Of a stretch of 64,000 bases of DNA, positions 3,700 through 59,127 are shown piece after piece; within the stretch, counting starts at the first letter, position 1, and every line of letters starts with the position of its first letter. The notes under the pieces are model-generated. The model worked only from the letters and a program-made list of their open reading frames with translations, was not told the origin of the DNA and ran no database searches. The position numbers were made by a program, and so were the translations under genes. The stretch lies in assembly GCA_965285935.1 (NCBI GenBank), contig OZ260662.1, positions 58,900,001 to 58,964,000 of the forward strand, given 5' to 3'. This DNA comes from Ophelia neglecta. Its lineage: Eukaryota.

Positions 3700-4195
3700 A
3701 TTGGCAAAGCAGTGATCAACACCTAAATTCACCAAAGCACAGACGACGACATCAAAGGCACCTTCCCATGCAAAACATGCTTTCATACCAACTCAAACCC
3801 TCTCATAAATGGACCGAAAGGACATATTACAGCTAAAGAACGTTTCTCGTGTGAATCGAAAGCAGTTGTGTACGCCATATCTTGTGAGCTATGTGGCCAA
3901 ATTTACATTGGCGAGACTGTTCGGCCCCTAGCAGACAGATTCGCCCAACAACGCAATCAGGTCGAGAGATTAATCAATGATCCGAGTAACGTAAAAAAAT
4001 CAACGAAAATTGCCAGACATTTTGCTGAACCTGGTCATAGCGCTGATGACATGAGAGTGGGGCAATTTGTACCGTCGATGACAGGAAGGATCGCTTCACC
4101 AAGGAGCAAGAAGTTATCGGACTCCTGGGAGCTGATCGTGGAGAGGCATTTAGCACGCATTTTCGCTACGTGAATCTAGTAAAAGACAATATTTG
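3700..4195 (+). pseudogene. Penelope family A GIY-YIG endonuclease fragment; repeated in the array and at 12.0-13.9 kb and 59.1-60.9 kb
   Basis: FSCESKAVVYAISCELCGQIYIGETxRxxADRFAQ...IARHF, preceded by a Cys-rich linker (PCDTPCKTC in the 12866 and 59228 copies). Confidence 0.85.
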
Positions 4196-4349
4196 ATTCA
4201 TTTTACATTCATATCTATATATATTGTATAGTACTTTATGCTGGTATTACGCACGTGCCTTTCTATGACGTAATAATTTGACGTAATTTCCTACGTGTAT
4301 ATCAACATTTATCGATATTTTAAATATTTTGACATTAGAAGATTTGTAA

Positions 4350-4384
4350 TCCCCGAAGAAGGCTGAAGCAGCCGATAGCTTGGA
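4350..4384 (+). ncRNA. Family A hammerhead with mutated core (CCGAAGA); also at 488, 6428, 8506 and 10583
   Basis: U4 to C change relative to CUGAAGA, otherwise identical. Confidence 0.55.
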
Positions 4385-7300: not shown

Positions 7301-10300
7301 GGGGGCAATTTGCTCCGTCGATGACAAGGAAGGATCGCTTCACCAAGGAGCAAGAAGTTATCGGACTCCTGGGAGCTTATCGTGGAGAGGCATTGAGCAC
7401 GCATTTTCGCTACTTGAATCTAGTAAAAGACAATATTTGATTCATTTTACATTCATATCTATATATATTGTACAGTTCTCTATGCTGGTATTGTGTTTGC
7501 ATGGCCTATCTACTATCTTGCCGCATTTACGCACGTGCCTTTCTATGACGCAATAATTTGACGTAATTTTCTACGTGTATATCAACTTTTATCGATATTT
7601 TCAATATTTTGACATTAGAAGATTTGTAATCCCTGAAGAAGGCTGAAGCAGCCGATAGCTTGGAATAAAGCAATTCTATTTACACATGTTTCGGATCTTC
7701 ATCCTTAACATGCACCAAATCAGATAAAAGTTTCTACAAACAACTCAGCAAGGAAGATATTAGGACTCATCAACTACACCATTCTCCAGAAAGACCCTCT
7801 TGTCGGTAAAGCCTTTCAAATTAAACCCTAAATCGCCTACCGACGAGGCCCAATAATTGGCAAAGCAGTGATCAACACCTAAATTCACCAAAGCACAGAC
7901 GACGACATCAAAGGCACCTTCCCATGCAAAACATGCTTTCATACCAACTCAAACCCTCTCATAAATGGACCGAAAGGACATATTACAGCTAAAGAACGTT
8001 TCTCGTGTGAATCGAAAGCAGTTGTGTACGCCATATCTTGTGAGCTATGTGGCCAAATTTACATTGGCGAGACTGTTCGGCCCCTAGCAGACAGATTCGC
8101 CCAACAACGCAATCAGGTCGAGAGATTAATCAATGATCCGAGTAACGTAAAAAAATCAACGAAAATTGCCAGACATTTTGCTGAACCTGGTCATAGCGCT
8201 GATGACATGAGAGTGGGGCAATTTGTACCGTCGATGACAGGAAGGATCGCTTCACCAAGGAGCAAGAAGTTATCGGACTCCTGGGAGCTGATCGTGGAGA
8301 GGCATTTAGCACGCATTTTCGCTACGTGAATCTAGTAAAAGACAATATTTGATTCATTTTACATTCATATCTATATATATTGTGTAGTACTTTATGCTGG
8401 TATTACGCACGTGCCTTTCTATGACGTAATAATTTGACGTAATTTCCTACGTGTATATCAACATTTATCGATATTTTAAATATTTTGACATTAGAAGATT
8501 TGTTATCCCCGAAGAAGGCTGAAGCAGCCGATAGCTTGGAATAAAGCAATTCTATTTACACCTGTTTCGGATCTTCATCCTTACCATGCACCATTTTTAG
8601 TACAGGTGTGCACAGCAGACATCTACTTCTACTTTTATTGGCACTCCATGTGGTGGAGATTATTCTAATCTTTTTGTAGACTGGGAGGAGGAAAACATCA
8701 GAAACGAATACCTTGGAAGACAACCTGAACTCCTCAAACGCTATGTCAATGACAATTGTGGAGCAACTACTATGCCTATGGAATAGCTCAAGAAGTATTT
8801 GAAATTTGTCAACAGCCACAATGAGAACATCAAATACACCTTCATCACATGTGAAGAGGCCATCCCTATGATGGACACAACGCTTTACGTAAAGGACCGA
8901 AAAATTGAATCCACCATCTATTACAAGGGAACAGACAGCCACTCCTACCTCAAATTTGATTCTGAACACCCGAATAGCTTGAAGAAGAGTATTCCCTACT
9001 CGTAATTCTTAAGATGAAGAAGAATAGTGTCAAGCAATGCAGATTTCCAAGCAAGAGCCCAGGAAATGAAGCTTTTCTTTCTGAATAGAAATTACCCACA
9101 TCGAATCGTGTCAGATGGATTGAGAAAAGTCAGCTCTTAAGTCAGAGAGGATCTTCTAAAGGATAAGCCAAGACAGAACTATGAAAAAGACCTTTTAACT
9201 TTTCCTATTACCTACAACAGCATCATCCGTAAGATTGTAAAATCAGTACTAACCTACTACATCATTCTCCAGAAAGACTGGTCGAGAGATTAATCAATGA
9301 TCCGAGTAACGTAAAAAATTCAACGAAAATTGCCAGACATTTTGATGAAACTGGTCATAGCGCTGATGACGTGTGAGAGGGGGCGATTTGATCCGTCGAT
9401 GACAAGGAAGGATCGCTTCACCAAGGAGCAAGAAGTTATCGGACTCCTGGGAGCTTATCGTGGAGAGGCATTGAGCACGCATTTTCGCTACTTGAATCTA
9501 GTAAAAGACAATATTTGATTCATTTTACATTCCTATCTATATATATTGTACAGTTCTCTATGCTGGTATTGTGTTTGCATGGCCTATCTACTATCTTGCC
9601 GCATTTACGCACGTGCCTTTCTATGACGCAATAATTTGACGTAATTTTCTACGTGTATATCAACTTTTATCGATATTTTCAATATTTTGACATTAGAAGA
9701 TTTGTAATCCCTGAAGAAGGCTGAAGCAGCCGATAGCTTGGAATAAAGCAATTCTATTTACACCTGTTTCGGATCTTCATCCTTAACATGCACCAAATCA
9801 GATAAAAGTTTCTACAAACAACTCAGCAAGGAAGATATTAGGACTCATCAACTACACCATTCTCCAGAAAGACCCTCTTGTCGGTAAAGCCTTTCAAATT
9901 AAACCCTAAATCGCCTACCGACGAGGCCCAATAATTGGCAAAGCAGTGATCAACACCTAAATTCACCAAAGCACAGACGACGACATCAAAGGCACCTTCC
10001 CATGCAAAACATGCTTTCATACCAACTCAAACCCTCTCATAAATGGACCGAAAGGACATATTACAGCTAAAGAACGTTTCTCGTGTGAATCGAAAGCAGT
10101 TGTGTACGCCATATCTTGTGAGCTATGTGGCCAAATTTACATTGGCGAGACTGTTCGGCCCAAGCAGACAGATTCGCCCAACAACGCAATCAGGTCGAGA
10201 GATTAATCAATGATCCGAGTAACGTAAAAAAATCAACGAAAATTGCCAGACATATTGCTGAACCTGGTCATAGCGCTTATGACATGAGAGTGGGGCAATT

Positions 10301-13071
10301 TGTACCGTCGATGACAGGAAGGATCGCTTCACCAAGGAGCAAGAAGTTATCGGACTCCTGGGAGCTGATCGTGGAGAGGCATTTAGCACGCATTTTCGCT
10401 ACGTGAATCTAGTAAAAGACAATATTTGATTCATTTTACATTCATATCAATATATATTGTACAGTACTTTATGCTGGTATTACGCACGTGCCTTTCTATG
10501 ACGTAATAATTTGACGTAATTTCCTACGTGTATATCAACATTTATCGATATTTTAAATATTTTGACATTAGAAGATTTGTAATCCCCGAAGAAGGCTGAA
10601 GCAGCCGATAGCTTGGAATAAAGCAATTCTATTTACACCTGTTTCGGATCTTCATCCTTACCATGCACCATTTTTAGTACAGGTGTGCACAGCAGACATC
10701 TACTTCTACTTTTATTGGCACCCCATGTGGTGGAGATTATTCTAATCTTTTTGTAGACTGGGAGGAGGAAAACATCAGAAACGAATACCTTGGAAGACAA
10801 CCTGAACTCCTCAAACGCTATGTCAATGACAATTGTGGAGCAACTACTATGCCTATGGAATAGCTCAAGAAGTATTTGAAATTTGTCAACAGCCACAATG
10901 AGAACATCAAATACACCTTCATCACATGTGAAGAGGCCATCCCTATGATGGACACAACGCTTTACGTAAAGGACCGAAAAATTGAATCCACCATCTATTA
11001 CAAGGGAACAGACAGCCACTCCTACCTCAAATTTGATTCTGAACACCCGAATAGCTTGAAGAAGAGTATTCCCTACTCGTAATTCTTAAGACTAAGAAGA
11101 ATAGTGTCAAGCAATGCAGATTTCCAAGCAAGAGCCCAGGAAATGAAGCTTTTCTTTCTGAATAGAAATTACCCACATCGAATCGTGTCAGATGGATTGA
11201 GAAAAGCCAGCTCTTAAGTCAGAGAGGATCTCCTAAAGGATAAGCCAAGACAGAACTATGAAAAAGACCTTTTAACTTTTCCTATTACCTACAACAGCAT
11301 CATCCGTAAGATTGTAAAATCAGTACTAACCTACTACATCATTCTCCAGAAAGACTGGTCGAGAGATTAATCAATGATCCGAGTAACGTAAAAAATTCAA
11401 CGAAAATTGCCAGACATTTTGATGAAACTGGTCATAGCGCTGATGACGTGTGAGAGGGGGCAATTTGTTCCGTCGATGACAAGGAAGGATCGCTTCACCA
11501 AGGAGCAAGAAGTTATCGGACTCCTGGGAGCTTATCGTGGAGAGGCATTGAGCACGCATTTTCGCTACTTGAATCTAGTAAAAGACAATATTTGATTCAT
11601 TTTACATTCATATCTATATATATTGTACAGTTCTCTATGCTGGTATTGTGTTTGCATGGCCTATCTACTATCTTGCCGCATTTACGCACGTGCCTTTCTA
11701 TGACGCAATAATTTGACGTAATTTTCTACGTGTATATCAACTTTTATCGATATTTTCAATATTTTGACATTAGAAGATTTGTAATCCCTGAAGAAGGCTG
11801 AAGCAGCCGATAGCTTGGAATAAAGCAATTCTATTTACACCTGTTTCGGATCTTCATCCTTAACATGCACCAAATCAGATAAAAGTTTCTACAAACAACT
11901 CAGCAAGGAAGATATTAGGACTCATCAACTACACCATTCTCCAGAAAGACCCTCTTGTCGGTTAAGCCTTTCAAATTAAACCCTAAATCGCCTACCGACG
12001 AGGCCCAATAATTGGCAAAGCAGTGATCAACACCTAAATTCACCAAAGCACAGACGACGACATCAAAGGCACCTTCCCATGCAAAACATGCTTTCATACC
12101 AACTCAAACCCTCTCATAAATGGACCGAAAGGACATATTACAGCTAAAGAACGTTTCTCGTGCGAATCGAAAGCAGTTGTGTACGCTATATCTTGTGAAC
12201 TATGTGGCCAAATTTACATTGGCGAGACTGGTCGGCGCCAAGCAGACAGGTTCGCCCAACATTGCAATCTGGTCGAGAGATTAATCAATGATCCGAATAA
12301 GGTAAAAAAATTCAACGAAAATTGCCAGATATTTTGCTGAACCTGGTCAAAGCACTGATGACGTGAGAGTTGTGGCAATTTGTACCGTCGATGACAGGAA
12401 GGATGGCTTCAGTAGTAAAGTATAAATCCTGAGCTTTCCCTGTGTCGCTTCACCAAGGAGCAAGTAGTTATCGGACATTTGGAAGCTTATCGTGAAGAGG
12501 CATTGAACACGCATTTCGCTACGTGAATGTAGTAAAACGCAAAATATTTAACTCATTTTACATTAGAAGATTTGTAATCCCTGAAGAAGGCTGAAGCAGC
12601 CGATAGCTTGGAAGAAAGCAATTTTATTTACACCTGTTTCGTATATTCAACCATGCACCAAATCAGATACAAGTTCCTACAAACAACTCAGCAAGGACTA
12701 TATTGGGACTCATCAACTACACCATTCTCCAGAAAGACCCTCTTGTCGGTAAAGCCTGTCAAATTAAACCCACAATCGACTACCGACGAGGCCCAACAAT
12801 TGGCAAAGCAGAGATCAACACCTAAATTCATCAGATAACAGACTATGACATCAAAGGCACCTTTCCCTGTGACACACCATGCAAAACATGCTTCCATACC
12901 AACTCAAGCCCCCTCATTAATGGACCGAAAGGACATATTACAGCTAAAGAACGTTTCTCGTGTGAATCGAAAGCAGTTGTGTACGCTATATCTTGTGAGC
13001 TATGTGGCCAAATTTACATTGGCGAGACTGGTCGGCGCCAAGCAGACAGGTTCGCCCAACTTTGCAATGTG

Positions 13072-13697
13072 TATATCAAGAGCACTTATCTATGTCATTG
13101 AGTGTCATAAGTGCGGACACATCTATGTTGGAGAAACTGGACGAAGATTGGGAGATCGTTTCGTGGAACACAGACTGTCAGTCATAAAAAAAGATCAATC
13201 AAAGGCTGTTGGAGAACACTTCTCTTCCAATGGACACAACGTAGAAGACATGAAAGTTTGTGGCCTACTCAGTGTGGTGGACATTAACAGAAGAAAACTC
13301 CTGGAACAAAAAATAATCGGCAAACTGGGATGCTTACAGGGACTCGGAGGCATGTATATTGACTTTAATTTTATGAGTGTTAATTAGTGCCTTTTCGTTC
13401 ATTTTGGACAACTGTACTCACTTTCCTGACGTTTTTGGTTCTCTGCATTATTAATCTGGTACTTTTTGTTTTGTTTCTTCTACTATTTTCTCTTTCATTT
13501 GTCATTTACCGCATTTTGTCGCGAGTTTCTATGTTTGACGTCATTAACGACGTAATTTGGTTTTTGACGTCATTTCCTATAACATTTTTTTGAATTTGCT
13601 CATTTAGATTTTTTGTACCTTGAGGAAGGCTGCATCAGCCGAAACGTCGGTCTATTAAAGTTTTAACACCCGTTGGACATCTTTTTACTTCATTTTA
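13072..13697 (+). mobile_element. Penelope family B, 5'-truncated (GIY-YIG + 3'UTR + pLTR, no tail)
   Basis: CISRALIYVIECHKCGHIYVGETGRRLGDRFVEH...; TSD TTTGCAATGTG at 13061-13071 and 13698-13708. Confidence 0.9.
13617..13651 (+). ncRNA. Minimal hammerhead ribozyme, family B; also at 17401(+), 59590(+), 15447(-), 59527(-), and mutated at 61425(-)
   Basis: ACC-TTGAGGA-A-GGCTG-CAT-CAGCC-GAAACGTC-GGT: helix I ACC/GGT, 5-bp helix II, palindromic ACGT helix III, GUC cleavage triplet. Confidence 0.75.
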
Positions 13698-13937
13698 TTT
13701 GCAATGTGGTCGAGAGATTAATCAATGATCCGAATAAGGTAAAAAATTCAACGAAAATTGCGAGATATTTTGCTGAACCTGGTCATAGCGCTGATGACAT
13801 GCGAGTGGGGGCTATTTGTACCATCGATGACAGGAAGGATGGCTTCAGTATTAAAATATAAATCCTGAGGTTTCCCTGTGTCGCTTCACCAAGGAGCAAG
13901 AAGTTATCGGACTCTTGGGAGCTTATCGTGGAGAGGC

Positions 13938-14403
13938 CAAAAAATTCTTGGAAAATCCCTGAGTTCACTCCTGTGTCTCCGCTAATGTTTTATATGGAAT
14001 TACATGCATTACATGTGGCAAACTTTATATTGGAGAAACCACGCGCCGCCTTTCAGATAGAAGAGAGATATATGTAGGTTCTCTGTGCACCACCTAATTA
14101 TGCAATAAAATGAAATAAAAAGATGTCCAACGGGTGTTAAAACTTTAATAGACCGACGTTTCGGCTGATGCAGAAAGATTTCGAGAACATCTCAGGGACA
14201 TTAGAAAGTCGATAAGAGCCTCACCGGTCGCCCAACATTTCACCAGCACAGGACATTCCATCGATGATGTTAGCATAACTGTGCTTAAACAATGTGCTAA
14301 TGATATTGACAGAAAAGCCCTCGAAATGAGGCTAATCCATAAACTTGGTACCCTTGACCCTCATGGTATGAATTTAGACTTCACATACAAGGTTTGAATA
14401 CCA
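13938..14403 (+). mobile_element. Penelope family C, 5' half (GIY-YIG) of the copy split by the DIRS element
   Basis: CVSANVLYGITCITCGKLYIGETTRRLSDRFREH...HGMN; collinear with the uninterrupted copy at 62668-62931. Confidence 0.9.
14060..14170 (-). mobile_element. Family B tail plus partial pLTR mini-insertion within the family C GIY-YIG
   Basis: Matches 15355-15465. Imperfect TSD CAGATAGA/CAGAAAGA; empty site visible at ~62723-62730. Confidence 0.8.
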
Positions 14404-14476
14404 AATTCTATCTCACCTCCCCAGTCTACGTCACTCTAGTAATCACACGAAGATCACAGCAGCTGAGCATCATCAT
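14404..14476 (+). repeat. DIRS left terminus / left ITR
   Basis: 14404-14448 is complementary to ICR 58341-58385; 14440-14476 is complementary to 58555-58591. Confidence 0.9.
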
Positions 14477-15354
14477 TACACAGTTAGCTCTTGAGCAGTG
14501 CACATGTGTGGACCAGTGCTCCGTTAGTGAAATCTCAACTACGTGGCCCAAGGAGGACTTTTCACTGTAGGATAACTTTCTTGTGTTTGTATCACCTGTT
14601 TTGTGTTGAATTCTGTTCCTCCCCTACTTTGCAATGGCTACTATTACTGAGCCTGTATTGCTCAACCCAAATGAGATTGAGCAGCATCCCAATGAAATGA
14701 TGGGCATGCTGGCCAACCTGACTGGCTCCCTTGACAAGATGACCGGCTTTATGGAAAAGCTGGGCAAGGCCTATGAGTCCCTTGCAGCCCCCAAAAAATA
14801 GAGCCAGAACAGAGTTGGCGTTAGGTAACAATAGCGATCAACATTTGGATGATGCTATACTTAAGGACGAGGAAGACTTAAACAGTCTACTCTCCCATGA
14901 TAACCCCTCTGAACCTCAACCTGTTCTTATGGATTGTGAGGAAAAAGAAAATGAGGGCGATGATGGGGATATAGATGTCTTAAATGACATTTGTGATGAA
15001 TTAGAAATGTCTGAAAAAATTTTCATCAAACGTCTCAGAAAAACTTGCTAAAATCGTAAATGCAAGATTTGACAGGAAATTGTCATTTGATCTCCTCAAG
15101 GAGAAGCTTGATAAACACCACCGGCCTAAAAATGGTGAGAAAATGTTAGTGCCTACATTAAATGAAGAGGTAAAGTCATCGATTAATCTGTTGCAGAACA
15201 AAAGAGATCAAAGGCTGGCCCATCTGCAAAAGGCTGTAGTAAACTCAGCTCTAGCGGTCACCACTATGACACAGATGGCCCTCTCTGGCAAAAAAGAATC
15301 CCAGTCCGTTGATTGGGAGAAACTTGTCATTGCTGGCACAGATGCTATAGCTAT

Positions 15355-17482
15355 GAAGAGAGATATATGTAGGTTCTCTGTGCACACCCTAATTATGCAA
15401 TAAAATGAAGTAAAAAGATGTCCAACGGGTGTTAAAACTTTAATAGACCGACGTTTCGGCTGATGCAGCCTTCCTCAAGGTACAAAAAATCTAAATGAGC
15501 AAATTCAAAAAAAATGTTATAGGAAATGACGTCAAAAACCAAATTACGTCGTTAATGACGTCAAACATAGAAACTCGCGACAAAATGCGGTAAATGACAA
15601 ATGAAAGGGAAAATAGTAGAAGGAACATAACAAAAAGTACCAGATTAATAATGCAGAGAACCAAAAACGTCAGGAAAGTGAGTACAGTTGTCCAAAATGA
15701 ACGAAAAGGCACTAATTAACACTCATAAAATTAAAGTCAATATTCATGCCTCCGAGTCCCTGTAAGCATCCCAGTTTGCCGATTATTTTTTGTTCCAGGA
15801 GTTTTCTTCTGTTAATGTCCACCACACTGAGTAGGCCACAAACTTTCATGTCTTCTACGTTGTGTCCATTGGAAGAGAAGTGTTCTCCAACAGCCTTTGA
15901 TTGATCTTTTTTTATGACTGACAGTCTGTGTTCCACGAAACGATCTCCCAATCTTCGTCCAGTTTCACCAACATAGATGTGTTCGCACTTATGACACTCA
16001 ATGACATAGATAAGTGCTCTTGATATACAGGTAAATTTGTCCTTGATGTTAAAAAGTCCTTTTGGTCCCTGTATACTTTTTGCTGGTTAACATAAGAGCA
16101 AGTATAGCAACGGGGTCTACCACAGGAAAAAGTGCCGGCTTCTGGATGGGACGGCTTGGTGTTGGCATGGACTAACATATCTCTTAGGTTACTACCCCTT
16201 TTGTAGGCGACCAAGGGGCGTGATTGGAATACGTTGTGGAGTTCTTCGTCCTCTGAAAGAATAGAAAAGTTCCTCTGTATTATCTTCGCGACCTTCTTAT
16301 TGATCTCGTTGTGGATTATAGGGAATGTTAATGGTAGCTTGTTCTTATCATTTGGTGTTTGTAGTATTTCTTCCCTTGAGAATTTTTCGGCTCTCCTCAA
16401 TCCTTTCATGATGATCTTCCTGGGGTATCCCCGCTGTTGAAAAAAGTCTATCATGTTCCTTGCTTCTCCTTGGAACTGTTCTTCTCTAGAGCATATCTTC
16501 CTCAGGCGCAGAAATTGAGAATATGGAATGCTGTTTTTGCATGCCACTGGATGGTCAGATTCATATAGTAGGTATGAATGAGTATCCGAGTCTTTATAGA
16601 AAATTCCCGAGTGTATTTGATCTTTTTCAATTGATAAAATAGTGTCCAGCATATTAACAGTCTTGTCCGATATCACTGCTACGTATTCTATGTGGGGGTT
16701 ATGCATGTTGACGTAAGATACATATTTCTCTAGGTCTTCTCGGCTCATTGACGTCGCTCCGAAAATGTCGTCTATGTAGCGCTTCTGGAGCTCTGGTTTA
16801 GGACCTTGATACGAAAGGTTAATTTTTTCTTCCTCGTGACCGATAAACAAACAGGCGTACTCTGACCCGAAGCAAGTTCCCATCATGGTTCCTCCAATTT
16901 GAGTGTAGAAGTCTCCTTCAAACTGGAAACAGTTGACCGTAAGGACCAGTTCTGCGAGACGTAGAATAGTAGCTGTGCTTATATTTCTCTGAGATGTGGG
17001 ATCCCTTTGGTCGAGGAAGTGTTTGAGAGCTAAAAGTCCATCACTATTGGGTATGTTAGTGTAGAGGCTCTTGATATCCATAGTGAAAAGCAAGTTGTTA
17101 TTGTCTGTTGGGAAGCGAAACGGCTTGGTGATATTCAAGAGATGGTTGGTGTCTTTGATGAAAGAAGGCAATTCTTGAACAATTGGTTTCAAGAGTTCAC
17201 TCAAATATTTAGAAATCAAATATGTAGGACACGAAATACTGGTACTTTTTGTTATGTTCCTTCTACTATTTTCTCTTTCATTTGTCATTTACCGCATTTT
17301 GTCGCGAGTTTCTATGTTTGACGTCATTAACGACGTAATTTGGTTTTTGACGTCATTTCCTATAACATTTTTTTTGAATTTGCTCATTTAGATTTTTTGT
17401 ACCTTGAGGAAGGCTGCATCAGCCGAAACGTCGGTCTATTAAAGTTTTAACACCCGTTGGACATCTTTTTACTTCATTTTAT
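15355..17482 (-). mobile_element. Penelope family B, 5'-truncated, with inverted upstream pLTR
   Basis: Tail+pLTR+3'UTR at 15355-15711, ORF to ~17238, inverted pLTR ~17238-17482; TSD TGCTATAGCTATG at 15343-15355 and 17483-17495. Confidence 0.93.
15712..17238 (-). pseudogene. Penelope-like RT + GIY-YIG polyprotein (Neptune-like), one frameshift near 16080
   Basis: MDIKSLYTNIP, QIGGTMMG, RYIDDIF, YKDSDTHSYL, CGRPRCYTC, then IYVIECHKC..IYVGET in the other frame. Confidence 0.92.
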
Positions 17483-18000
17483 TGCTATAGCTATGTTGGG
17501 GCATGTAACTAATGAGCTATGCCCACATAGAAAATACCAGCTAAAGCCTGCCCTTAGCCCCGAATACCAGCACCTCTGTAATCAGAGTACAGAAGTAACT
17601 TCACTCTTGTTTGGTGACAACCTGAACAAAGCCATGGCTGATGCAAAACAGGTGGCCAAGCTGGGAAAAAAGGCAACAGGCCAAGGACAGCAGTCAAAAA
17701 ACTGGCAGGGCAAGAACCGGCAGAAATGGAACCCAAATTTCAACAGGCACAAAAACAAAAACAGGTCCAACCAATACAGAGGACACAAACCCAACAATGC
17801 CAGCTCAAGCGGCCAGTACAAACAGAAGGGCCAATAGTCGAGGTAAGGACTAATCATGCTTGTAATTGGACCTACTGGTGTTTTATGGCATCAGTTGATC
17901 TGAAAGATGCATACTATTCTGTCCCTATTGCAGAAGAACATCAAAAGTATCTCAAATTTGAGTGGGAAGGACAATTCTTCCAATACACCGTTTTTCCAAA

Positions 18001-21000
18001 TAGTCTGGGCAGATTCTGGGAAAATGTGTATATTTAAAGTGGTGGAGGCATTTCATGTTTACGGCTGGCAAACATCATTTTTAGATGTATTTTTACATTC
18101 TTAATCGATCTAGAGGGTTTGCCAGAGTCAATTTTCAGCCGTTAACTCACAAACGTGATAAATCCAAAATGGCCGCCACCGAAATATGAAAACCTTATTT
18201 TTGTCATATCTTTGGAACAAAAAATGGTATAAACATAAATAAAGCATCATATTGTATGTTTTCAGGTACAAGGAATCCATTGAGACCATTATTAACGCTT
18301 TAATATTTCAAGAAATCAAGATATATACCATATTTGGGCAAAACATATCACCGACTGTGTCGAAAATGGTCATGTCTTTTATTCATATTGTTGATATCAG
18401 ACATGGTAAGAACATAAATGAAACATATTTTTTGTATGTTTTCAGGCACTAGATAGAAATCCATTAAGACTGCCATTTAGCAAGTAAATTTATATTGCCC
18501 ACCATTGGACTTTTTTTACTATTATACCTGTTCAAATAAGCATTGATTGGTTGTGGGCATATGACCAACTCACCAGAAATGTTAATTACGATCAACCCAA
18601 ATGGTTGTACTGATTGACCTTGTGCTTGTTCCTTTTTTGTTGTTGTATGCAGTTGTTTTTTGTAATTTGTTTTATATGTAACACATTTCATTTTAACAAC
18701 TTTGAAACAAATGTTCCCGTTTCTCAAGGAAGATGGAGATGTCATTTATTACATTGGGAATGATTTGTATTGGACACATATTTGTCATTGTGTAATTTTA
18801 GTAACAAAATAAATGTTGTTCCATTTAATGTTCCGGGAATATGTCATGTAAATGTGACTACAACTGAACCTCATGTGCGCCTGTACCATAAAGGCATCTG
18901 TCTTTGTTTGAGCATTTAATTTGTACCAATGGATTCAGATCAAGCATCAAGGAAGCGGGGATTGCTAATAGATTATGGCTAGCCTAAACATTCTTTTATA
19001 GAGCGCGGTTTAGTCGGCTTAAATTGTCATTACACTGTGACAGCTCCATGCTCTCAAGACGGATTCACAATAGGCCTACCAAAGAATGTACAGGTCTGTT
19101 TTCCGACTAAAGAGGTCACCGTAGTATGAACACCAACTGGGCAACAGCGGTTTGGGCGGAAGTCAGGGAATATCAAAATCGGAAGCTCCTGTCTCAACAA
19201 GTTGTTTGTGTGAGCTTTGCTTATTTGAGCAGATGTGTACACCGGAAGTAGTACATATATAGGTCAGAGGGGATACTCTAGTACTTGGAAGTTTGTAGAT
19301 AGTCAGGTAGGAACTTAAGCTCAGTAGTATACATTATATATTAAATACTAGACTGGTTATAAAAGCAATATTACAACATGCCGGGCAACATGCCTTTCTT
19401 AAAGATAGCTTCAGAGCATACAATATTAAAAGATTTTACAATGTTCATTTCGCATTTCAGCTGGTACACTCTCATTTTTATCATTATACATAAGGGGGAG
19501 AGGCCTCGGTAGTGCCAGACTGAATGGCTTCTGAAATATTGCTTCAAGAGGCTTGTGATCTGTGTGTATTGTTACTGAGCGGCCAAATACATATATATGC
19601 ATAGTTTCTCATAAGCATGGAGTAAAGCAAGTAGTTCTCTCTCAATATTGGTCCCTTTTCTTTGGAGGTCAACGACTTACGTTAAAACTGGACCGTTTTC
19701 CTCTTTGAAGCAACACAGTGCCGAGTCCCTTGAGCGAAGCATCTGTTTCTATAGTAACTTGCAGGCCAGGGTCGAAGTGCACTAGTTTAGTGATCTCTGT
19801 TTTCACTTTCTGAGTCTTCTCGATCCCTGCTGCATCTCAGCTGTCCGTACATAGTGGACATCTTTCTTCAACAATCCCCTCGTGCTGAATGTCATCTGAG
19901 CCAGTTTGGGCATGAAGTTGGCCATGAAGTTGACCGAGCCAAGGAAACTCTATAGCTCCTGCTTGTTCTCTGGCGGCGACATTTCTTGGATGTCCTGGAC
20001 TTTGTCCAGGGCTGGTTTCACGCCATCAGTTGATATCATTCGGCCGAAGTAATCAATGCTGGTTTTCTCGATGCAGAATTTATTTGGGTTGAACCTGATA
20101 CCTGCGTTCTTGGTTCTACGTACAGTCTCAAATAGGTGGATTTCCTGCCTTTCTTCCGTAGAACCCTGTACCTTCACGTCATCGGCACAGCTTGTCCAAT
20201 TCCAGTTTGAATTTGTTCTGTGTATCAAGTGGAATAGCGCGGGGTGGAAGCTGCACTGGCTCGATATCAGGATTCACTTTAAGATGTGCTTCGCCCTCAA
20301 AAAGTCCCACAGAACCATCAAACATCTCTGGGAAAATGTTCATCAAGTCCTTCTGCGGGTCTCCTGTTATCTTGCCTAGTGGCAGGTATTCCTTCCCCTT
20401 ATGCTTAAGCGTGCTGTAATCTACCTCTGTCTCCTCTGTGGCATGCACAGCTTCTACTTCAGCATTGATGTTCCTCAATGTACATATTTCTGCAAAGGTG
20501 ATGAGTTTGAAATGGGTACAAAAATCTACACCAAGAATCAGTTCAGTGCCGAGTTCTGTGATTATAATGCTGATGTTGTGTGTGTGATCATAACACTTGA
20601 CCCTGGTAGTCAGTACCCCTTTAGCTAGTAAGTCTGTACCAGTAACACCTCGTAACTTCACCTGTGTCGGTTTCAAACAGTGTTCTCCAAGGTGGAAATC
20701 TTTTAGCATATGAAGTGGCATACAAGTGGCTCCTGTATCCAACTTTCCTGCGACATCACCTCTCGGGGTTGTCTCCACGATACCAATGTTAATTGTATTA
20801 TAAAAGTCATCGTCATCACTTTCACTACACAATGTGACAGCTCTAGTCTTCTGAGTTCTGTGGGTCCTTTTTCGAAGACAAGCTTTCTCGAAGTGCCCTT
20901 TTCGGAAACAGAAGTCGCATTCAGCTACATGGGCTGGGCTGTTCTCGCGAATGTGTTGTGATGCAGAGCAACATTTACATCTCCTGTCCCCCCTGCTATC

Positions 21001-22175
21001 TGTTCCTCTGTGATCGTGAAAGGATTCCGCTGGTGGTGTGTATAGAGTGTGCCTTTTCTGTCGGTTACCTCTTTGTTGTGGACGACGTGGCGGTTCGTGA
21101 GAGTATGAAGCGCTAACCTGTATTTCACTGATTTTTTTCATTGTGACATCAAGGGACTCAAACTGTCTGAGGAGACCCAGACATGTCTTGACTTATACAT
21201 CTTTGTTCTTCACCATAAGCTTTTTCTTGGCTTCAGTGTTGATACATCCATTTATCAGTTTGTCTGCAATCAAAAAGATAGATTCGGCTGGGAACGCAGC
21301 TGGTCTATGTAGCTCAACAAGGCGGCTATAGCAACTGTTAGTATTCTACTTTCTATTTAACATTGTAGAAATCTTCACGCGCTTGGTGATGAATGTCGGA
21401 ACATTTTGCCTGAATAAAGTCACTTAATGGTCCTTTATAGACAATAGTAATGGAAAACTGGTAGCTTTTTTGGTAGCTGCATTCCTGTTTAACATTTGTT
21501 TATAGTGGTCAATGAAAAATATACGTACATTTATGTAAATAGTATAGCCGCATCAGTTCTAGTAGTCTATACTCAGTATATCCCTCATTGGAATCATAAC
21601 ATAAAGATAAAATTAAGTTCCTTTTTCAAGTTAGTATATTAGATGCAACCACTAATAAAAATTTGCCCAAATATGGTGTATATCTTGATTTCTTGAAATA
21701 TTGAGGCCTTAATAATGGTCTCATTGGATTCCTTGTACCTGAAAACATACAAAATGATGCTTTATTTATGTTTATAACATTTTTTGTGCCGAAGATATGA
21801 CAAAAATTAGGTTTTCATATTTTGGTGGCGGCCATTTTGGATTTGCCCTAATATGACATCAATCTTGATTTCTCGGACTATTGAAGATTTATTAAAGGTC
21901 TCAATAGATTCCTTTTCACCTGAAAACATACAAAATGATGCTTTTTTTATGTTTCTATCATTTTTGGTGCCAAAGATATGACAAAAATTAGGTTTTCATA
22001 TTACAGTGGCGGCCATTTTGGATTTACCATGTTTGTGAGTTAACGGCTGAAAATTGAGTCCGGCATACCCCCTAGATCGATTAAGAATGCAAAAATACAT
22101 CTAAAAATGATGTTTGCCAGCCGTAAACATGAAATGCCTCCACCATTAACATTTTCTGAATACTGGCCTAGTCTA
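18001..22175. mobile_element. Non-autonomous TIR DNA transposon, Academ-like (TAG...CTA termini, 3-bp TSD AAA), inserted in the DIRS RT
   Basis: Long imperfect TIRs (18001-~18342 vs ~21662-22175, with ~180-bp subrepeats carrying CAAAATGGCCGCC). Removing it restores TTTCCAAACGGCC as in the other RT copies. Superfamily inferred from termini and TSD only. Confidence 0.7.
19500..21330 (-). mobile_element. Decayed Gypsy (Mag-like) LTR retrotransposon gag-pol remnant
   Basis: Tandem Zn knuckles (CKCC...H; CDFCFRKGHFEKAC), protease LDTGAT, RT ADDVKVQG...IDYFG, RNaseH ETDASLKGLG and TDHKPL; internal deletions; no LTR pair recognised. Confidence 0.8.
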
Positions 22176-22178: not shown

Positions 22179-24345
22179 CGGCCTAAGAAGCTGTCCTCGA
22201 GATTTTACCAAGTTGCTTAAGCCAGCTTATGCCGAATTACGCCGGCAAGCGAATCAATCTGTGGCATATATGGAAGACTCATTTTTACAAGGTGAGCAAA
22301 AGGCTGACTGCCAGTTAAACGTGCTTCACACAGCTGAGATGATCTCATCCCTCGGTTTTATTATACACCCTGAAAAATCAGTACTTGTCCCAACTCAGAT
22401 AATTGAGTTCCTGGGCTTCCTGTTGGACTCAATCAACATGGTAGTAAAACTGACCCCACACAAAGCTACTGTTGTAAAACAGGCATGTGAACATCTCATG
22501 TCAAAGAATCTTCCCACAATTAGGGAAGTTTGTGTGGTTATAGGCAAATTAGTGGCTAGCTTTCCTGGAGTACTAATGGGACCACTTCACTATAGAACAA
22601 TAGAGACTGACAAAACTGCAGCTTTGAAGCTAAACAAGGGGAACTTTGATGCCACCATGACTTTATCACAAGGGGCCATTTCTGATTTGCAGTGGTGGAC
22701 TCAGCATGTTGAAACTGCTTTCAAACCAATTTCTCATGGTGAACCAGATGTTGTTCTCACCACAGATGCAAGCCTTAAAGCCTAGGGTGCCTTTAATAAA
22801 ACCAACTCACATTCAGCCCAAGGGGAATGGTCAATTAATGAAGCATCGAGTCAAATCAATGTTCTAGAACTAAAAGCAGCTCTTTTCGAACTGAAATCTC
22901 TCAGTGCTGTCTTGACAAATAAGCACATCAGACTTATGGTTGATAACATGACTGCTGTGGCTTACATTAGAGAGATGGGTGGGTGCAAATCCCATGATTG
23001 TGATCTTATCAGCCTAGAAATCTGGCAGTGGGCTTCTAGAAGCCTGTTTCCAGAAGCCTGTGGATCAGTGTAGCCCGTATTGCTGGAAAAGACAACATTG
23101 AAGCTGATATATTATCCAGAAAGTTTGATCATGAAACAGAATGGATGTTAAACCCACAAATGTTTAGAAATGCAATCAATTTGTGCCAGTTATAACCTAA
23201 GATTGATCTCTTTGCCTTCTAGAATCAACTGTCAATTGCCTACTTTCTTAGCTTGGAAACCTCAGCCAAATGCTTTTGCAATTGATGCTTTCTCAATTAA
23301 TTGGTCATTACTTGATTTTTACGCTTTTCCGCCTTTCTCTGTCATTTCTTTGGTTATACTAAAAGTCTTACATGAGAAAGCAACAGGAATCATTGTTATT
23401 CCCTACTGGCCGACTCAGTAAAATGAAGTAAAAAGATGTCCAACGGGTGTTAAAACTTTAATAGACCGACGTTTCGGCTGATGCAGCCTTCCTCAAGGTA
23501 CAAAAAATCTAAAATGACTCAGGCCTGGTTCCCATCTGTCATACATCTGTTGTGTGATTTCCCAATTTTGCTTTCTAGGAGCCGGTCATTATTGACCCTG
23601 CCGAGCAATCCACACAAAACACATCTATTGCACAAGAAGCTAGATCTACTGATGTGCTACATATCGAGGCAAACATCCAAAGTCAGGGACTTTCAACAAC
23701 GGCTAGAAATCTCATTCAGGCATCATGGAGACCGTCCACGAAAAAACAATACATCCCCTACTTACGGCGGTGGGAAATTTATTGCCATCAGAGGAAAATC
23801 AATAAAATTAAAAGTTCTGTGACTGATGGAATTAATTAACTTGGCTGAACTTTATAATACCGGAATTGGATAAAGTGCTATCAGCACCGCTCGTTCGGCA
23901 CTATCAACAGTTCTGCCGACTGTGGACCGAATAAATTTTGGCAAAGACCCCAATGTGACAAGGCTTTTAAAAGGAGTCTTCAATAAAAGACCTTCTTTGC
24001 CAAGGTTTCCAGCAATTTTTGATGTCAACATCTTATGATTCATTTTAAAAATATACCACTTTACCTGATCCCACTCAAGGAACTTTCTACAAAATTAGTA
24101 ATGCCGCTCGCTCTATTAACTGGGCGTGTGCAGACTCTCGTGGCTATCAAAACGGACAAGCTAACTTGTAAACCTACAAAGTGTGTTATCACAATTGATT
24201 CCGTATTAAAAACATCGAAGCCAGGGCGGCACATCAAGCCTATTGAGCTTTTGGCCTTTGAGGATGAAACATTGTCCCCTGTAAAGCATTTACAGAAATA
24301 TCTTGATTCAACATCTTCACTAAGGGGGAATGAGACCAAACTATT
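22179..24345 (+). pseudogene. DIRS unit 0: RT 3' part (YMED), RNaseH, MT and truncated YR
   Basis: Continues from 17878-18000 across the TIR element; stop at 22785. Confidence 0.9.
23419..23515 (-). mobile_element. 97-bp hammerhead-only family B insertion in the DIRS MT domain; copies at 26157-26253, 40531-40627 and 43269-43365
   Basis: 7-bp TSD GACTCAG; empty site present in the other nine units. Confidence 0.92.
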
Positions 24346-25763: not shown

Positions 25764-27230
25764 CAGTGGGCTTCTAGAAGCCTGTTTCTAGAAGCCTGTG
25801 GATCAGTGTAGCCCGTATTGCTGGAAAAGACAACATTGAAGCTGATATATTATCCAGAAAGTTTGATCATGAAACAGAATGGATGTTAAACCCACAAATG
25901 TTTAGAAATGCAATCAATTTGTGCCAGTTAGAACCTAAGATTGATCTCTTTGCCTTCTAGAATCAACTGTCAATTGCCTACTTTCTTAGCTTGGAAACCT
26001 CAGCCAAATGCTTTTGCAATTGATGCTTTCTCAATTAATTGGTCATTACTTGATTTTTACGCTTTTCCGCCTTTCTCTGTCATTTCTTTGGTTATACTAA
26101 AAGTCTTACATGAGAAAGCAACAGGAATACTTGTTATTCCCTACTGGCCGACTCAGTAAAATGAAGTAAAAAGATGTCCAACGGGTGTTAAAACTTTAAT
26201 AGACCGACGTTTCGGCTGATGCAGCCTTCCTCAAGGTACAAAAAATTTAAAATGACTCAGGCCTGGTTCCCATCTGTCATACATCTGTTGTGTGATTTCC
26301 CAATTTTGCTTTCTAGGAGCCGGTCATTATTGACCCTGCCGAGCAATCCACACAAAACACATCTATTGCACAAGAAGCTAGATCTACTACATGTGCTACA
26401 TATCGAGGCAAACATCCAAAGTCAGGGACTTTCAACAACGGCTAGAAATCTCATTCAGGCATCATGGAGACCGTCCACGAAAAAACAATACATCCCCTAC
26501 TTACGGCGGTGGGAAATTTATTGCCATCAGAGGAAAATCAATAAAATTAAAAGTTCTGTGACTGATGGAATTAATTAACTTGGCTGAACTTTATAATACC
26601 GGAATTGGATAAAGTGCTATCAGCACCGCTCGTTCGGCACTATCAACAGTTCTGCCGACTGTGGACCGAATAACTTTTGGCAAAGACCCCAATGTGACAA
26701 GGCTTTTAAAAGGAGTCTTCAATAAAAGACCTTCTTTGCCAAGGTTTTCAGCAATTTTTGATGTCAACATCTTATGATTCATTTTAAAAATATACCACTT
26801 TACCTGATCCCACTCAAGGAACTTTCTACAAAATTAGTGATGCTGCTCGCTCTATTAACTGGCCAGCGTGTGCAGACTCTCGTGGCTATCAAAACGGACA
26901 AGCTAACTTGTAAACCTACAAAGTGTGTTATCACAATTGATTCCGTATTAAAAACATCGAAGCCAGGGCGGCACATCAAGCCTATTGAGCTTTTGGCCTT
27001 TGAGGATGAAACATTGTCCCCTGTAAAGCATTTACAGAAATATCTTGATTCAACATCTTCACTTAGGGGGAATGAGACCAAACTATTGGTGATGAGGCTA
27101 TTTTCAAGTTGAATTTTGATCAAATATTGCTGAATGCAATTGACAGTGTAAAGAAGTTTAAGGCTGGCCGGCTTAAGCACTTTGTAAACAAGTGGTAATC
27201 TCTAACAACTGATAAAGAGATCATTCAAAT

Positions 27231-29060: not shown

Positions 29061-29155
29061 AGGGACTTTCAACAACGGCTAGAAATCTCATTCAGGCATC
29101 ATGGAGACCGTCCACGAAAAAACAATACATCCCCTACTTACGGCGGTGGGAAATT

Positions 29156-29978
29156 TATTGCCATCAGAGGAAAATCAATAAAATTAAAAGTTCTGTGACT
29201 GATGGAATTAATTAACTTGGCTGAACTTTATAATACCGGAATTGGATAAAGTGCTATCAGCACCGCTCGTTCGGCACTATCAACAGTTCTGCCGACTGTG
29301 GACCGAATAAATTTTGGCAAAGACCCCAATGTGACAAGGCTTTTAAAAGGAGTCTTCAATAAAAGACCTTCTTTGCCAAGGTTTTCAGCAATTTTTGATG
29401 TCAACATCTTATGATTCATTTTAAAAATATATTGCCATCAGAGGAAAATCAATAAAATTAAAAGTTCTGTGACTGATGGAATTAATTAACTTGGCTGAAC
29501 TTTATAATACCGGAATTGGATAAAGTGCTATCAGCACCGCTCGTTCGGCACTATCAACAGTTCTGCCGACTGTGGACCGAATAAATTTTGGCAAAGACCC
29601 CAATGTGACAAGGCTTTTAAAAGGAGTCTTCAATAAAAGACCTTCTTTGCCAAGGTTTTCAGCAATTTTTGATGTCAACATCTTATGATTCATTTTAAAA
29701 ATATATTGCCATCAGAGGAAAATCAATAAAATTAAAAGTTCTGTGACTGATGGAATTAATTAACTTGGCTGAACTTTATAATACCGGAATTGGATAAAGT
29801 GCTATCAGCACCGCTCGTTCGGCACTATCAACAGTTCTGCCGACTGTGGACCGAATAAATTTTGGCAAAGACCCCAATGTGACAAGGCTTTTAAAAGGAG
29901 TCTTCAATAAAAGACCTTCTTTGCCAAGGTTTTCAGCAATTTTTGATGTCAACATCTTATGATTCATTTTAAAAATAT
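29156..29978 (+). repeat. 274-bp sub-duplication of the YR N-terminal region (3 copies in unit 2; 2 copies in units 3, 4, 8 and 9)
   Basis: Minus-strand 63-aa ORFs at 29228, 29502 and 29776; junction AAAAATA-TATTGCC. Confidence 0.95.
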
Positions 29979-30412
29979 ACCACTTTACCTGATCCCACTC
30001 AAGGAACTTTCTACAAAATTAGTAATGCCGCTCGCTCTATTAACTGGGCGTGTGCAGACTCTCGTGGCTATCAAAACGGACAAGCTAACTTGTAAACCTA
30101 CAAAGTGTGTTATCACAATTGATTCCGTATTAAAAACATCGAAGCCAGGGCGGCACATCAAGCCTATTGAGCTTTTGGCCTTTGAGGATGAAACATTGTC
30201 CCCTGTAAAGCATTTACAGAAATATCTTGATTCAACATCTTCACTAAGGGGGAATGAGACCAAACTATTGGTGATGAGGCTATTTTCAAGTTGAATGTTG
30301 ATCAAATATTGCTGAATGCAATTAACAGTGTAAAGAAGTTTAAGGCTGGCCGGCTTAAGCACTTTGTAAACAAGTGGTAATCTCTAACAACTGATAAAGA
30401 GATCATTCAAAT

Positions 30413-38862: not shown

Positions 38863-40137
38863 ATGGTCAAAGGCTACCATATTCCCTTTAATGCTTCCCC
38901 AATACAATTAAACCTGCCTAAGAAAACGGTTTTTTGTGCACGGGAAATGACTTTGATTACAAATGAAGTACAGTCACCTTTAGAAAAAGGGGTTATAGAG
39001 AAATGTAGCAGAGAACCTTGGGATTTTGTCTCTAACATTTTTACTAGGGAGAAAAAAGATGGTTCGAGTAGGATTATCTTGAATGTTAAAAAACTGAACA
39101 TGTATGTGGATCATACCCATTTCAAAATGAAGACGCTATTGACAGCAATAAGGTTAATGAAATCAGGATGTTTTATGGCATCAATTGATCTGAAAGATGC
39201 ATACTATTCTGTCCCTATTGCAGAAGAACATCAAAAGTATCTCAAATTTGAGTGGGAAGGACAATTCTTCCAATACACCGTTTTTCCAAACGGCCTAAGA
39301 AGCTGTCCTCGAGATTTTACCAAGTTGCTTAAGCCAGCTTATGCCGAATTACGCCGGCAAGCTAATCAATCTGTGGCATATATGGATGACTCATTTTTAC
39401 AAGGTGAGCAAAAGGCTGACTGCCAGTTAAACGTGCTTCACACAGCTGAGATGATCTCATCCCTCGGTTTTATTATACACCCTGAAAAATCAGTACTTGT
39501 CCCAACTCAGATAATTGAGTTCCTGGGCTTCCTGTTGGACTCAATCAACATGGTAGTAAAACTGACCCCACACAAAGCTACTGTTGTAAAACAGGCATGT
39601 GAACATCTCATGTCAAAGAATCTTCCCACAATTAGGGAAGTTTGTGTGGTTATAGGCAAATTAGTGGCTAGCTTTCCTGGAGTACTAATGGGACCACTTC
39701 ACTATAGAACAATAGAGACTGACAAAACTGCAGCTTTGAAGCTAAACAAGGGGAACTTTGATGCCACCATGACTTTATCACAAGGGGCCATTTCTGATTT
39801 GCAGTGGTGGACTCAGCATGTTGAAACTGCTTTCAAACCAATTTCTCATGGTAAACCAGATGTTGTTCTCACCACAGATGCAAGCCTTAAAGCCTGGGGT
39901 GCCTTTAATAAAACCAACTCACATTCAGCCCAAGGGGAATGGTCAATTAATGAAGCATCGAGTCATATCAATGTTCTAGAACTAAAAGCAGCTCTTTTCG
40001 AACTGAAATCTCTCAGTGCTGTCTTGACAAATAAGCACATCAGACTTATGGTTGATAACATGACTGCTGTGGCTTACATTAGAGAGATGGGTGGGTGCAA
40101 ATCCCATGATTGTGATCTTATCAGCCTAGAAATCTGA
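38863..40137 (+). CDS. DIRS RT-RNaseH ORF, unit 6
   Basis: Same motifs as unit 1. Confidence 0.8.
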   Translation: MVKGYHIPFNASPIQLNLPKKTVFCAREMTLITNEVQSPLEKGVIEKCSREPWDFVSNIFTREKKDGSSRIILNVKKLNMYVDHTHFKMKTLLTAIRLMKSGCFMASIDLKDAYYSVPIAEEHQKYLKFEWEGQFFQYTVFPNGLRSCPRDFTKLLKPAYAELRRQANQSVAYMDDSFLQGEQKADCQLNVLHTAEMISSLGFIIHPEKSVLVPTQIIEFLGFLLDSINMVVKLTPHKATVVKQACEHLMSKNLPTIREVCVVIGKLVASFPGVLMGPLHYRTIETDKTAALKLNKGNFDATMTLSQGAISDLQWWTQHVETAFKPISHGKPDVVLTTDASLKAWGAFNKTNSHSAQGEWSINEASSHINVLELKAALFELKSLSAVLTNKHIRLMVDNMTAVAYIREMGGCKSHDCDLISLEI

Positions 40138-41600
40138 CAGTGGGCTTCTAGAAGCCTGTTTCTAGAAGCCTGTGGATCAGTGTAGCCCGTATTGCTGGAA
40201 AAGACAACATTGAGGCTGATATATTATCCAGAAAGTTTGATCATGAAACAGAATGGATGTTAAACCCACAAATGTTTAGAAATGCAATCAATTTGTGCCA
40301 GTTAGAACCTAAGATTGATCTCTTTGCCTTCTAGAATCAACTGTCAATTGCCTACTTTCTTAGCTTGGAAACCTCAGCCAAATGCTTTTGCAATTGATGC
40401 TTTCTCAATTAATTGGTCATTACTTGATTTTTACGCTTTTCCGCCTTTCTCTGTCATTTCTTTGGTTATACTAAAAGTCTTACATGAGAAAGCAACAGGA
40501 ATCATTGTTATTCCCTACTGGCCGACTCAGTAAAATGAAGTAAATAGATGTCCAACGGGTGTTAAAACTTTAATAGACCGACGTTTCGGCTGATGCAGCC
40601 TTCCTCAAGGTACAAAAAATCTAAAATGACTCAGGCCTGGTTCCCATCTGTCATACATCTGTTGTGTGATTTCCCAATTTTGCTTTCTAGGAGCCGGTCA
40701 TTATTGACCCTGCCGAGCAATCCACACAAAACACATCTATTGCACAAGAAGCTAGATCTACTGATGTGCTACATATCGAGGCAAACATCCAAAGTCAGGG
40801 ACTTTCAACAACGGCTAGAAATCTCATTCAGGCATCATGGAGACCGTCCACGAAAAAACAATACATCCCCTACTTACGGCGGTGGGAAATTTATTGCCAT
40901 CAGAGGAAAATCAATAAAGTTAAAAGTTCTGTGACTGATGGAATTAATTAACTTGGCTGAACTTTATAATACCGGAATTGGATAAAGTGCTATCAGCACC
41001 GCTCGTTCGGCACTATCAACAGTTCTGCCGACTGTGGACCGAATAAATTTTGGCAAAGACCCCAATGTGACAAGGCTTTTAAAAGGAGTCTTCAATAAAA
41101 GACCTTCTTTGCCAAGGTTTTCAGCAATTTTTGATGTCAACATCTTATGATTCATTTTAAAAATATACCACTTTACCTGATCCCACTCAAGGAACTTTCT
41201 ACAAAATTAGTAATGCCGCTCGCTCTATTAACTGGGCGTGTGCAGACTCTCGTGGCTATCAAAACGGACAAGCTAACTTGTAAACCTACAAAGTGTGTTA
41301 TCACAATTGATTCCGTATTAAAAACATCGAAGCCAGGGCGGCACATCAAGCCTATTGAGCTTTTGGCCTTTGAGGATGAAACATTGTCCCCTGTAAAGCA
41401 TTTACAGAAATATCTTGATTCAACATCTTTACTAAGGGGGAATGAGACCAAACTATTGGTGATGAGGCTATTTTCAAGTTGAATGTTGATCAAATATTGC
41501 TGAATGCAATTAACAGTGTAAAGAAGTTTAAGGCTGGCCGGCTTAAGCACTTTGTAAACAAGTGGTAATCTCTAACAACTGATAAAGAGATCATTCAAAT

Positions 41601-59115: not shown

Positions 59116-59127
59116 ATGACAATAATC

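Follow-up and report, generated by a model that had tools for sequence, protein, structure and literature searches.

Introduction

The closest described systems are Penelope-like elements and the short hammerhead sequences derived from them. For the Poseidon element PAc of Anolis carolinensis the available text of PMC11167929 reports that reverse transcription starts internally at two sites, without homology to the target, and that the tail is the sequence between them. According to the same text the enzyme favours AT-rich DNA, cleavage is dispensable in vitro, and no cut ends are found in RNA-seq. The Penelope promoter and start site lie within the pLTR (PMC2377424, as far as its available part goes), and initiator-like TCACT and ACATT have been noted in rotifer pLTRs (available part of PMC3846280). 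In metazoans, minimal hammerhead motifs occur mostly as single units and have been put down to truncated elements (PMC4209133, in the part available). Both solo pLTRs and isolated hammerhead motifs left by truncated elements have thus been published before. As a variant of the catalytic core, U3-A8 is a known active covariation (available part of PMC3088659).

Here, we present a 97-bp piece of a pLTR located in a window of 64,000 nucleotides from Ophelia neglecta (assembly GCA_965285935.1, contig OZ260662.1, positions 58,900,001 to 58,964,000). All coordinates without a contig label refer to this window. Three Penelope-like families, A, B and C, are distinguished; the insert belongs to family B.

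Materials and Methods

Family B is numbered from the A of an initiator-like TCATTT (window position 15496), which is +1. The catalogue of end points was compiled from the DNA around 125 of 126 genome-wide matches to a 3'-end pattern and all 71 matches to a tail pattern. Every family B arm was mapped. Tandem and segmental duplicates were collapsed by hand, and junctions were called by hand with an uncertainty of 1-3 nt. Internal deletions at C2:58964318, C5:38421110 and C12:13119906 were not counted as 5' ends; those of family A at C7:37513469, C9:59798970 and, later, C5:38464734 were also left out. For the simulation counts C12:13255586, which has a non-standard 3' end, was omitted and the 5' end at C9:59772.7 was re-called from +56 to +48/+50. 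BLAST placed the copies with an extra T at +2 and one copy at -1; these were reset to +1 by hand. The boundaries of the Penelope-like islands were drawn after the matches had been seen. Contigs of public runs were also inspected over the pLTR, but the loose ends in them were not numerous enough to map end points independently.

The insert and its target site

The features of the target locus are as follows:

22176-58120, plus strand: array of 13 partial DIRS-type units with broken frames, in which RT, tyrosine recombinase and MT-like stretches are discernible (profile matches; right boundary approximate)
23412-23418, plus strand: left copy of the target-site duplication GACTCAG (unduplicated at the 9 empty sites of the array; the empty junction also exists at 9 places elsewhere)
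23419-23515, minus strand: 97-bp insert, family B pLTR +1 to +96 plus an extra T (sequence match to 15401-15495)
23516-23522, plus strand: right copy of the target-site duplication GACTCAG (sequence)
26157-26253, minus strand: insert copy in unit 1, one private change (array comparison)
40531-40627, minus strand: insert copy in unit 6, one change common to unit 7 (array comparison)
43269-43365, minus strand: insert copy in unit 7 (array comparison)

The array is identified by matches to RVT_1 (E 1.1e-17) and Phage_integrase (E 2.1e-7); the stretch which carries the insert we take to be MT-like. The sites starting at 23412, 26150, 40524 and 43262, i.e., those of units 0, 1, 6 and 7, are filled. 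The remaining nine of 13 are empty and possess a single GACTCAG. Comparison of all 13 sites confirmed in this respect what a preliminary description, made from the letters alone, had stated: a 97-bp insert with a 7-bp duplication in four units. The probability of this 7-mer at a fixed place by chance is 4e-5. The first two bases of the right copy also match positions -2 and -1 of the element, and the 5' boundary of the insert is uncertain by 2 nt. A target duplication and a known empty site, the marks of a target-primed insertion, are both present.

The element sense is on the minus strand, hence antisense to the DIRS units. The sense strand has neither an ATG nor a tail. It consists of the family B pLTR from +1 to +96 with one extra T near the 5' end; read on the plus strand, its first 95 bases match positions 15401-15495 of a long family B copy by 100%. 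The first codon of the insert is TAA, which halts the MT-like frame after YWPTQ; in empty units the same frame continues as PTQAWFP. The orientation, the stop right after YWPTQ and the absence of an ORF and a tail had all been described correctly. A further possibility, that the insert inactivated a working DIRS gene, was rejected because in 13 of 13 units the frame already has a stop (DLFAF*) about 70 codons upstream of the insert site. The insert is inert debris inside a dead transposon array.

The filled junction has 4 matches in the 762-Mb assembly, all within the array of the window. The empty junction has 18, 9 of which are outside the array. The four copies are a single insertion event, as had been proposed. 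Contigs from three of three public runs, all of one sample, cross the empty DIRS site without a branch; the filled junction was not among the matches listed for these contigs, and contigs cannot prove absence. Segment 22176-29705 is repeated at 39288-46815 with 99.5% identity, and units 0-2 and 6-8 are parts of a 17.1-kb higher-order repeat. In about 1,350 flank positions empty unit 5 has 2 differences to filled units 6 and 7, whereas filled unit 0 has 7 differences to them. The higher-order repeat and these flank differences fit an insertion that probably spread among units by array duplication and exchange.

Two observations concern the surroundings. A 274-bp internal duplication (29151-29979) varies in copy number among the DIRS units (units 2, 3, 4, 8 and 9 too). 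On the minus strand, 19650-21300 is a broken stretch which by eye resembles gag-protease-RT of an LTR retrotransposon; a Pfam search with its 337-aa frame returned no family.

The source element

Family B is represented in the window by a long copy and several independent short copies:

15356-17243, minus strand: long 5'-truncated family B copy with RT, zinc-finger-like linker, frameshifted GIY-YIG, 3' pLTR and tail (GIY-YIG E 7.8e-5)
17239-17482, plus strand: inverted tailless pLTR arm of the long copy (sequence)
15493-15498, minus strand: initiator-like TCATTT (sequence; 5'-end peak)
15356-15400, minus strand: tail of about 40 nt between two fixed 3' ends, +96/+98 and +138/+142 (end mapping)
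59435-59675, no single strand assigned: independent head-to-head short insertion, its arms beginning at +8 and -4, one of them tailed and the other tailless (end mapping)
61374-61467, minus strand: independent short tailless copy, 5' end about +8, short fold-back (end mapping)
14060-14173, minus strand: independent short copy, +29 to tail (end mapping)

The long insertion (15356-17482) is bounded by a 13-bp duplication (15343-15355 and 17483-17495). Its frame 15912-17288 contains a YIDD motif. In the Atlas the nearest clusters to the RT frame are RT proteins with HTH_animal/RVT_1 (score 0.97); Pfam assigned no family to this frame, and a PDB sequence search with the RT had no match. The RT is followed by a C-terminal GIY-YIG domain, the match to which (E 7.8e-5) passes the cut-off. 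This order of domains is that of endonuclease-bearing Penelope-like elements; likewise, tandem or inverted pLTRs and an optional tail of 30-40 nt are present. Judged by sequence, the 97-bp insert is the end piece, i.e., the pLTR, of such an element. The linker carries CGRPRCYTC, a feature described in the available text of PMC8557442 for Neptune and Nematis. This points to a Neptune-type element (Neptune or Nematis by linker).

The full family B unit comprises 3,086 bp and is found in tandem at C8:70.46-70.48 Mb. At least six such units are lined up at C8:70463282-70481794, some with a U3-A8 core; in the unit which was translated the frames are broken. Penelope-like families are nested in one another's ORFs and pLTRs (window 12400-17500 and 59100-61200). 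Family B has inserted into family A and, at C8:70462648, into its own ORF.

3' ends

The 3' ends of family B gather at two fixed sites, +96/+98 and +138/+142, with the tail in between. By analogy this matches two internal reverse-transcription start points that bound the tail, as in the Anolis element. The insert of the window ends at +96, the proximal fixed end, without homology to the target. This end and the target duplication uphold the earlier claim that a Penelope-like enzyme carried out the integration. In a hand count of head-to-head insertions with both 3' ends, one arm is short (+94 to +102) and the other tailed (+130 to +143) in 18 of 18 cases, which suggests that a single reaction uses one start site for the first target strand and the other site for the second.

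5' ends

After de-duplication 117 arms remain in the catalogue, and 52 of them extend beyond -70. At +1 to +3 begin 12 of the 117 arms and 9 of the 47 independent events; 0.9 are expected. In a simulation with 47 events and arm numbers kept, not one of 100,000 runs reached 9 events at +1 to +3. When the best 3-nt window anywhere is considered the simulated P is 0.0002. The peak is 3 nt wide, exceeds the background 13-fold and has its summit on the A of the initiator-like TCATTT. Clean solo inserts that begin at +1, reach the tail and are flanked by target duplications are located at C5:11149731 and C8:70462648. Another at C7:37522271 exists in three tandem copies, and no duplication was found there. 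The events at +1 also include arms of inverted pairs.

The preliminary description had considered the insert either an extreme truncation or a minimal ribozyme retroposon and had suggested that end points be plotted genome-wide. This was done, and the 5' ends are indeed not continuously distributed; they have a sharp peak exactly at the insert start. Ordinary random truncation is unlikely in view of this peak, and the second alternative does not gain support from it (see Discussion). Both ends of the insert recur in other independent insertions and likely mark the start of an RNA and the start of its copying. From these sequence patterns we conclude, with a probability of roughly 70%, that the insert is a complete run-off cDNA, extending from a putative internal priming site at +96 to the putative transcript 5' end at +1.

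The extra T is absent in all 73 read-through copies and is present in 9 of 20 other rows, which represent three events. A threefold repeat of the terminal 7-8 nt is present at C5:38446150. An extra T and terminal repeats are expected when the enzyme reaches the physical end of its template and realigns. Stuttered junctions are also known from family A, and there the sequence begins anew at the corresponding base, -47 relative to the family A cut. Replication of the peak in this family is weak: 3 of 20 ends are at -48 to -44 (P 0.08), and the ends spread from -67 to -34. Family C has no start peak; the ends of its few short copies are located in the region of stem II.

At C5:38446013-38446266 two head-to-head +1 arms are joined via three terminal copies of 7-8 bases with a variable number of Ts. 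This junction looks as though a telomerase-related RT had realigned on its template several times.

The explanation which comes nearest to competing with a run-off cDNA is ordinary 5' truncation at a hot spot, i.e., the enzyme would stall or slip in a U-rich stretch upstream of the hammerhead, and no transcript end would be involved. U-runs favour slippage. The sequence just 3' of +1 is U-rich, ends are frequent over +5 to +35 (17 arms), five more arms end at +6 to +8, and those of family C cluster in stem II. Part of the +1 peak could therefore be due to a hot spot of slippage or to the AG at +5/+6. Yet this peak is only 3 nt wide and centred on the initiator A, whereas the longer U-runs at +8 to +13 and -17 to -11 are not peaked, and the repeated re-copying of terminal bases fits a physical template end. 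Hot-spot truncation as the cause of the 5' end is thus unlikely.

The predicted hammerhead

The insert contains one further feature:

23465-23499, minus strand: predicted minimal type I hammerhead (drawn by hand from motif geometry)

The predicted structure has a 3-bp stem I, one unpaired A, a 5-bp stem II and a palindromic ACGU which replaces stem III. In the core, position 3 is a U opposite G8. The predicted cut lies between 23468 and 23467, with 48 nt of the insert before and 49 nt after it. The earlier designation of the insert as hammerhead-only goes too far: the hammerhead geometry is present, but the insert also includes a 16 nt leader and 46 nt past stem I.

An Rfam scan of the 64-kb window at gathering score yielded no hammerhead match. 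On folding of the insert neither strand beats shuffled sequences (z -0.04), and the minimum-energy fold is not a hammerhead; with the hammerhead stems forced the energy is -9.0 compared to -14.7 kcal/mol for the minimum. In a cofold of two cores a hammerhead dimer is not the minimum. Because Rfam is negative and the minimum-energy fold differs, the ribozyme call rests on motif geometry. This geometry, that of a minimal type I hammerhead in a pLTR, is shared by family B in the U3/G8 variant: among 90 cores U3 is combined with G8 in 78 and with A8 in 4. In the available parts of the literature on minimal hammerheads (PMC4209133, PMC3088659) no description of the U3-G8 core was found.

The hammerheads of the other families differ. 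Family A (window 61076-61104 and other copies) has a canonical C3-G8 core with GAUA instead of GAAA. The minimal core of family C (59045 region) is fully canonical.

A second peak at the predicted cut

The 5' arms of 6 of 47 events are at +48 to +51; +48 is the first base past the predicted cut. P for this peak is 0.007 in a fixed window, 0.025 with a 7-nt window (6 of 47) and 0.46 scan-wide. In families A and C combined, 5 of 28 ends are at the cut compared to 2.0 expected (P 0.05); family C contributes 1 of 8 short ends. In a single case, at C5:38455193, +48 is the 3' end of a family B arm. A small hairpin closes at +50 and is a rival cause, since the enzyme could have stopped at this hairpin. 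None of the cut-site junctions is inside the ACGU palindrome, and the end at C12:13117130 is a plain target junction. Self-complementarity does not fully account for the second peak. The end pattern is a weak hint that the family B hammerhead may cleave in vivo. The insert of the window itself was probably templated by uncut RNA because it spans the predicted cut site.

A family A junction at C7:37514020-37514260 (minus strand), again a single case, joins the presumed RNA start to a piece with the predicted cut as its end; it looks as though the 5' cleavage fragment had served the enzyme as a new template after a jump.

One may read the short insertions as a fossil map of germ-line RNA. The peaks would mark the transcript start and the hammerhead cut, the minimal U3-G8 hammerhead would cleave in vivo, cut and uncut RNAs would both be copied to their physical ends, and ends would be realigned in a telomerase-like manner. 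We advance this broader proposal, drawn from the insertions themselves, tentatively and with somewhat more doubt than belief.

Penelope-like islands

One island of Penelope-like elements of 65-183 kb is present on each of the 7 large contigs, which make up 97% of the assembly (positions in Mb):

C1:74.83-74.90
C2:58.85-58.98 (holds the window)
C5:38.42-38.50
C7:37.51-37.59
C8:70.44-70.51
C9:59.76-59.87
C12:13.08-13.26

For the three Penelope-like families, 108 of 125, 80 of 83 and 21 of 25 pattern matches are inside the islands, i.e., in 0.1% of the genome. In the islands which were fetched no short satellite was found. As there is one island per chromosome, the distribution suggests that the islands may be centromeres built from, or targeted by, Penelope-like elements. 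A literature listing contained no case of centromeres of Penelope-like elements. At 1988-12564 the window has an array of about five 2,078-bp units composed of nested family A pieces.

Discussion

How might the insert have originated? A tandem copy of family B would be transcribed from the initiator-like motif in the upstream pLTR, starting at +1. The 5' end of this RNA would be located about 47 nt before the predicted cut, and its first 140 nt would hold the hammerhead and both priming sites. Reverse transcription would start at +96/+98 or +138/+142, a mechanism which is borrowed from the Anolis element. At the DIRS array the enzyme would nick the plus strand after GACTCAG; its template would be an uncut RNA, and it would prime at +96 within the 5'-most pLTR. 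Priming there, and not at the pLTR after the ORF, would leave only 96 or about 138 nt before run-off. Having copied 96 nt the enzyme would run off the template, slip once, which would add the extra T, and join the second nick 7 nt away. A single event would later have reached four of 13 units through array duplication and exchange. Everything that lies downstream of the priming site is missing from the inserted piece, which is therefore predicted not to move again. Two further points count against this run-off model. The target is GC-rich at the insert of the window, different from the preference of the Anolis enzyme, and the mechanism is taken from a Poseidon-clade element whereas family B looks Neptune-type.

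The preliminary description had also envisaged a minimal non-autonomous retroposon, retrozyme- or SINE-like, which would have its own master copy and be moved in trans by a Penelope enzyme. Such an element would have fixed 5' and 3' ends, as is the case here, and the extra T is common to three events. Further, Penelope promoters are partly internal (available part of PMC2377424), and pLTR-derived retrozymes down to 51 bp have been reported (available text of bioRxiv 10.64898/2026.07.22.740005). However, at least two consecutive short tandem hammerhead units, which characterize a retrozyme, were not seen: in 125 of 126 matches examined the unit is nowhere repeated head to tail, and a tandem-repeat scan of regions >20 kb revealed no short-period array of a 97-bp unit. 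Nor are there the many dispersed copies from a short master that a SINE-like family would leave; the window harbours the single clean solo from +1 to +96. The short family B copies carry alleles which they share with long copies and have no private sequence in common. Even the copies with the extra T differ at a tail site, and both alleles also exist in long copies (11 and 3 rows). The ends are off the cut site, unlike those of a ribozyme-released monomer. Lastly, the Anolis element requires sequence downstream of the priming site (PMC11167929, available text), and the insert has none. On the sequence evidence a separate retrozyme- or SINE-like family is not supported, and we consider this origin improbable.

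Could splicing have set the 5' end? In cis or in trans it would have to use the AG at +5/+6, which together with a pyrimidine-rich stretch immediately precedes stem I of the hammerhead. A precedent is the Drosophila virilis Penelope intron, which ends at the 5' end of helix I (available part of PMC4209133), and five arms start at +6 to +8. But the main peak at +1 to +3 is upstream of the AG, and the +6 to +8 arms lack a common upstream exon or leader, which makes splicing very improbable. Recombination or a repair patch at the DNA level from a nearby pLTR, without reverse transcription, might be invoked with the long family B copy only 8 kb off and with Adineta solo pLTRs without duplications, which were put down to recombination or deletion (available part of PMC3846280), but it is largely refuted by the end pattern and hardly credible given the perfect 7-bp duplication, the 3' end at a fixed priming site without target homology and the absence of the extra T from all 73 read-through copies.

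The value of the insert as a run-off cDNA is that of one point on a map of Penelope copying. Family B is young and has about 125 nearly identical ends, so the copying route and cutting in vivo may be read from DNA. From the end map a start site can be predicted with single-base precision, as can two priming sites and a candidate product of the cut. Further, it offers a simple origin for many single hammerhead motifs in animal genomes: they may be run-off copies of a transcript 5' end and not a separate family. A literature search of main texts, with few subscription papers covered, found no prior description of a class of start-site run-off inserts.

How does family B compare with the known systems? 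With the animal non-LTR retrozymes (bioRxiv 10.64898/2026.07.22.740005, available text) the insert has in common that it is short, non-coding, pLTR-derived and carries a type I hammerhead. Those are defined by at least two consecutive hammerhead units, whereas here 2.7 kb of the host array separate one hammerhead from the next. The minimal hammerheads of metazoan Penelope-like elements (PMC4209133, in the part available) share the short stem I, the unpaired base before stem II, the palindromic remnant of stem III and the U3-A8 variant; they differ from family B, in which U3 with G8 prevails (78 of 90 cores).

In Adineta vaga (PMC3846280, available part) the pLTRs of Penelope elements with an endonuclease agree with family B in their inverted arms, the optional tail on one arm, the target duplications, the initiator-like motif and the occurrence of solo pLTRs. 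Several solos of Adineta vaga, however, have no duplications and were ascribed to recombination, whereas the solo in the window has a duplication and a 5' end which recurs at one base.

PAc of Anolis carolinensis (PMC11167929, available text) has, like family B, tandem units and a hammerhead in the pLTR, in family B a predicted one; probably common to both are two internal start points which bound the tail, initiation without target homology and, as template, uncut RNA. In contrast, the linker of family B looks Neptune-type and the target is GC-rich. The ORF of family B appears to start after the tail, judged from broken frames, whereas that of PAc starts inside the hammerhead. Finally, no PAc reads start at the cut in the text available, whereas 6 of 47 family B insertion events have an arm within 4 nt of it.
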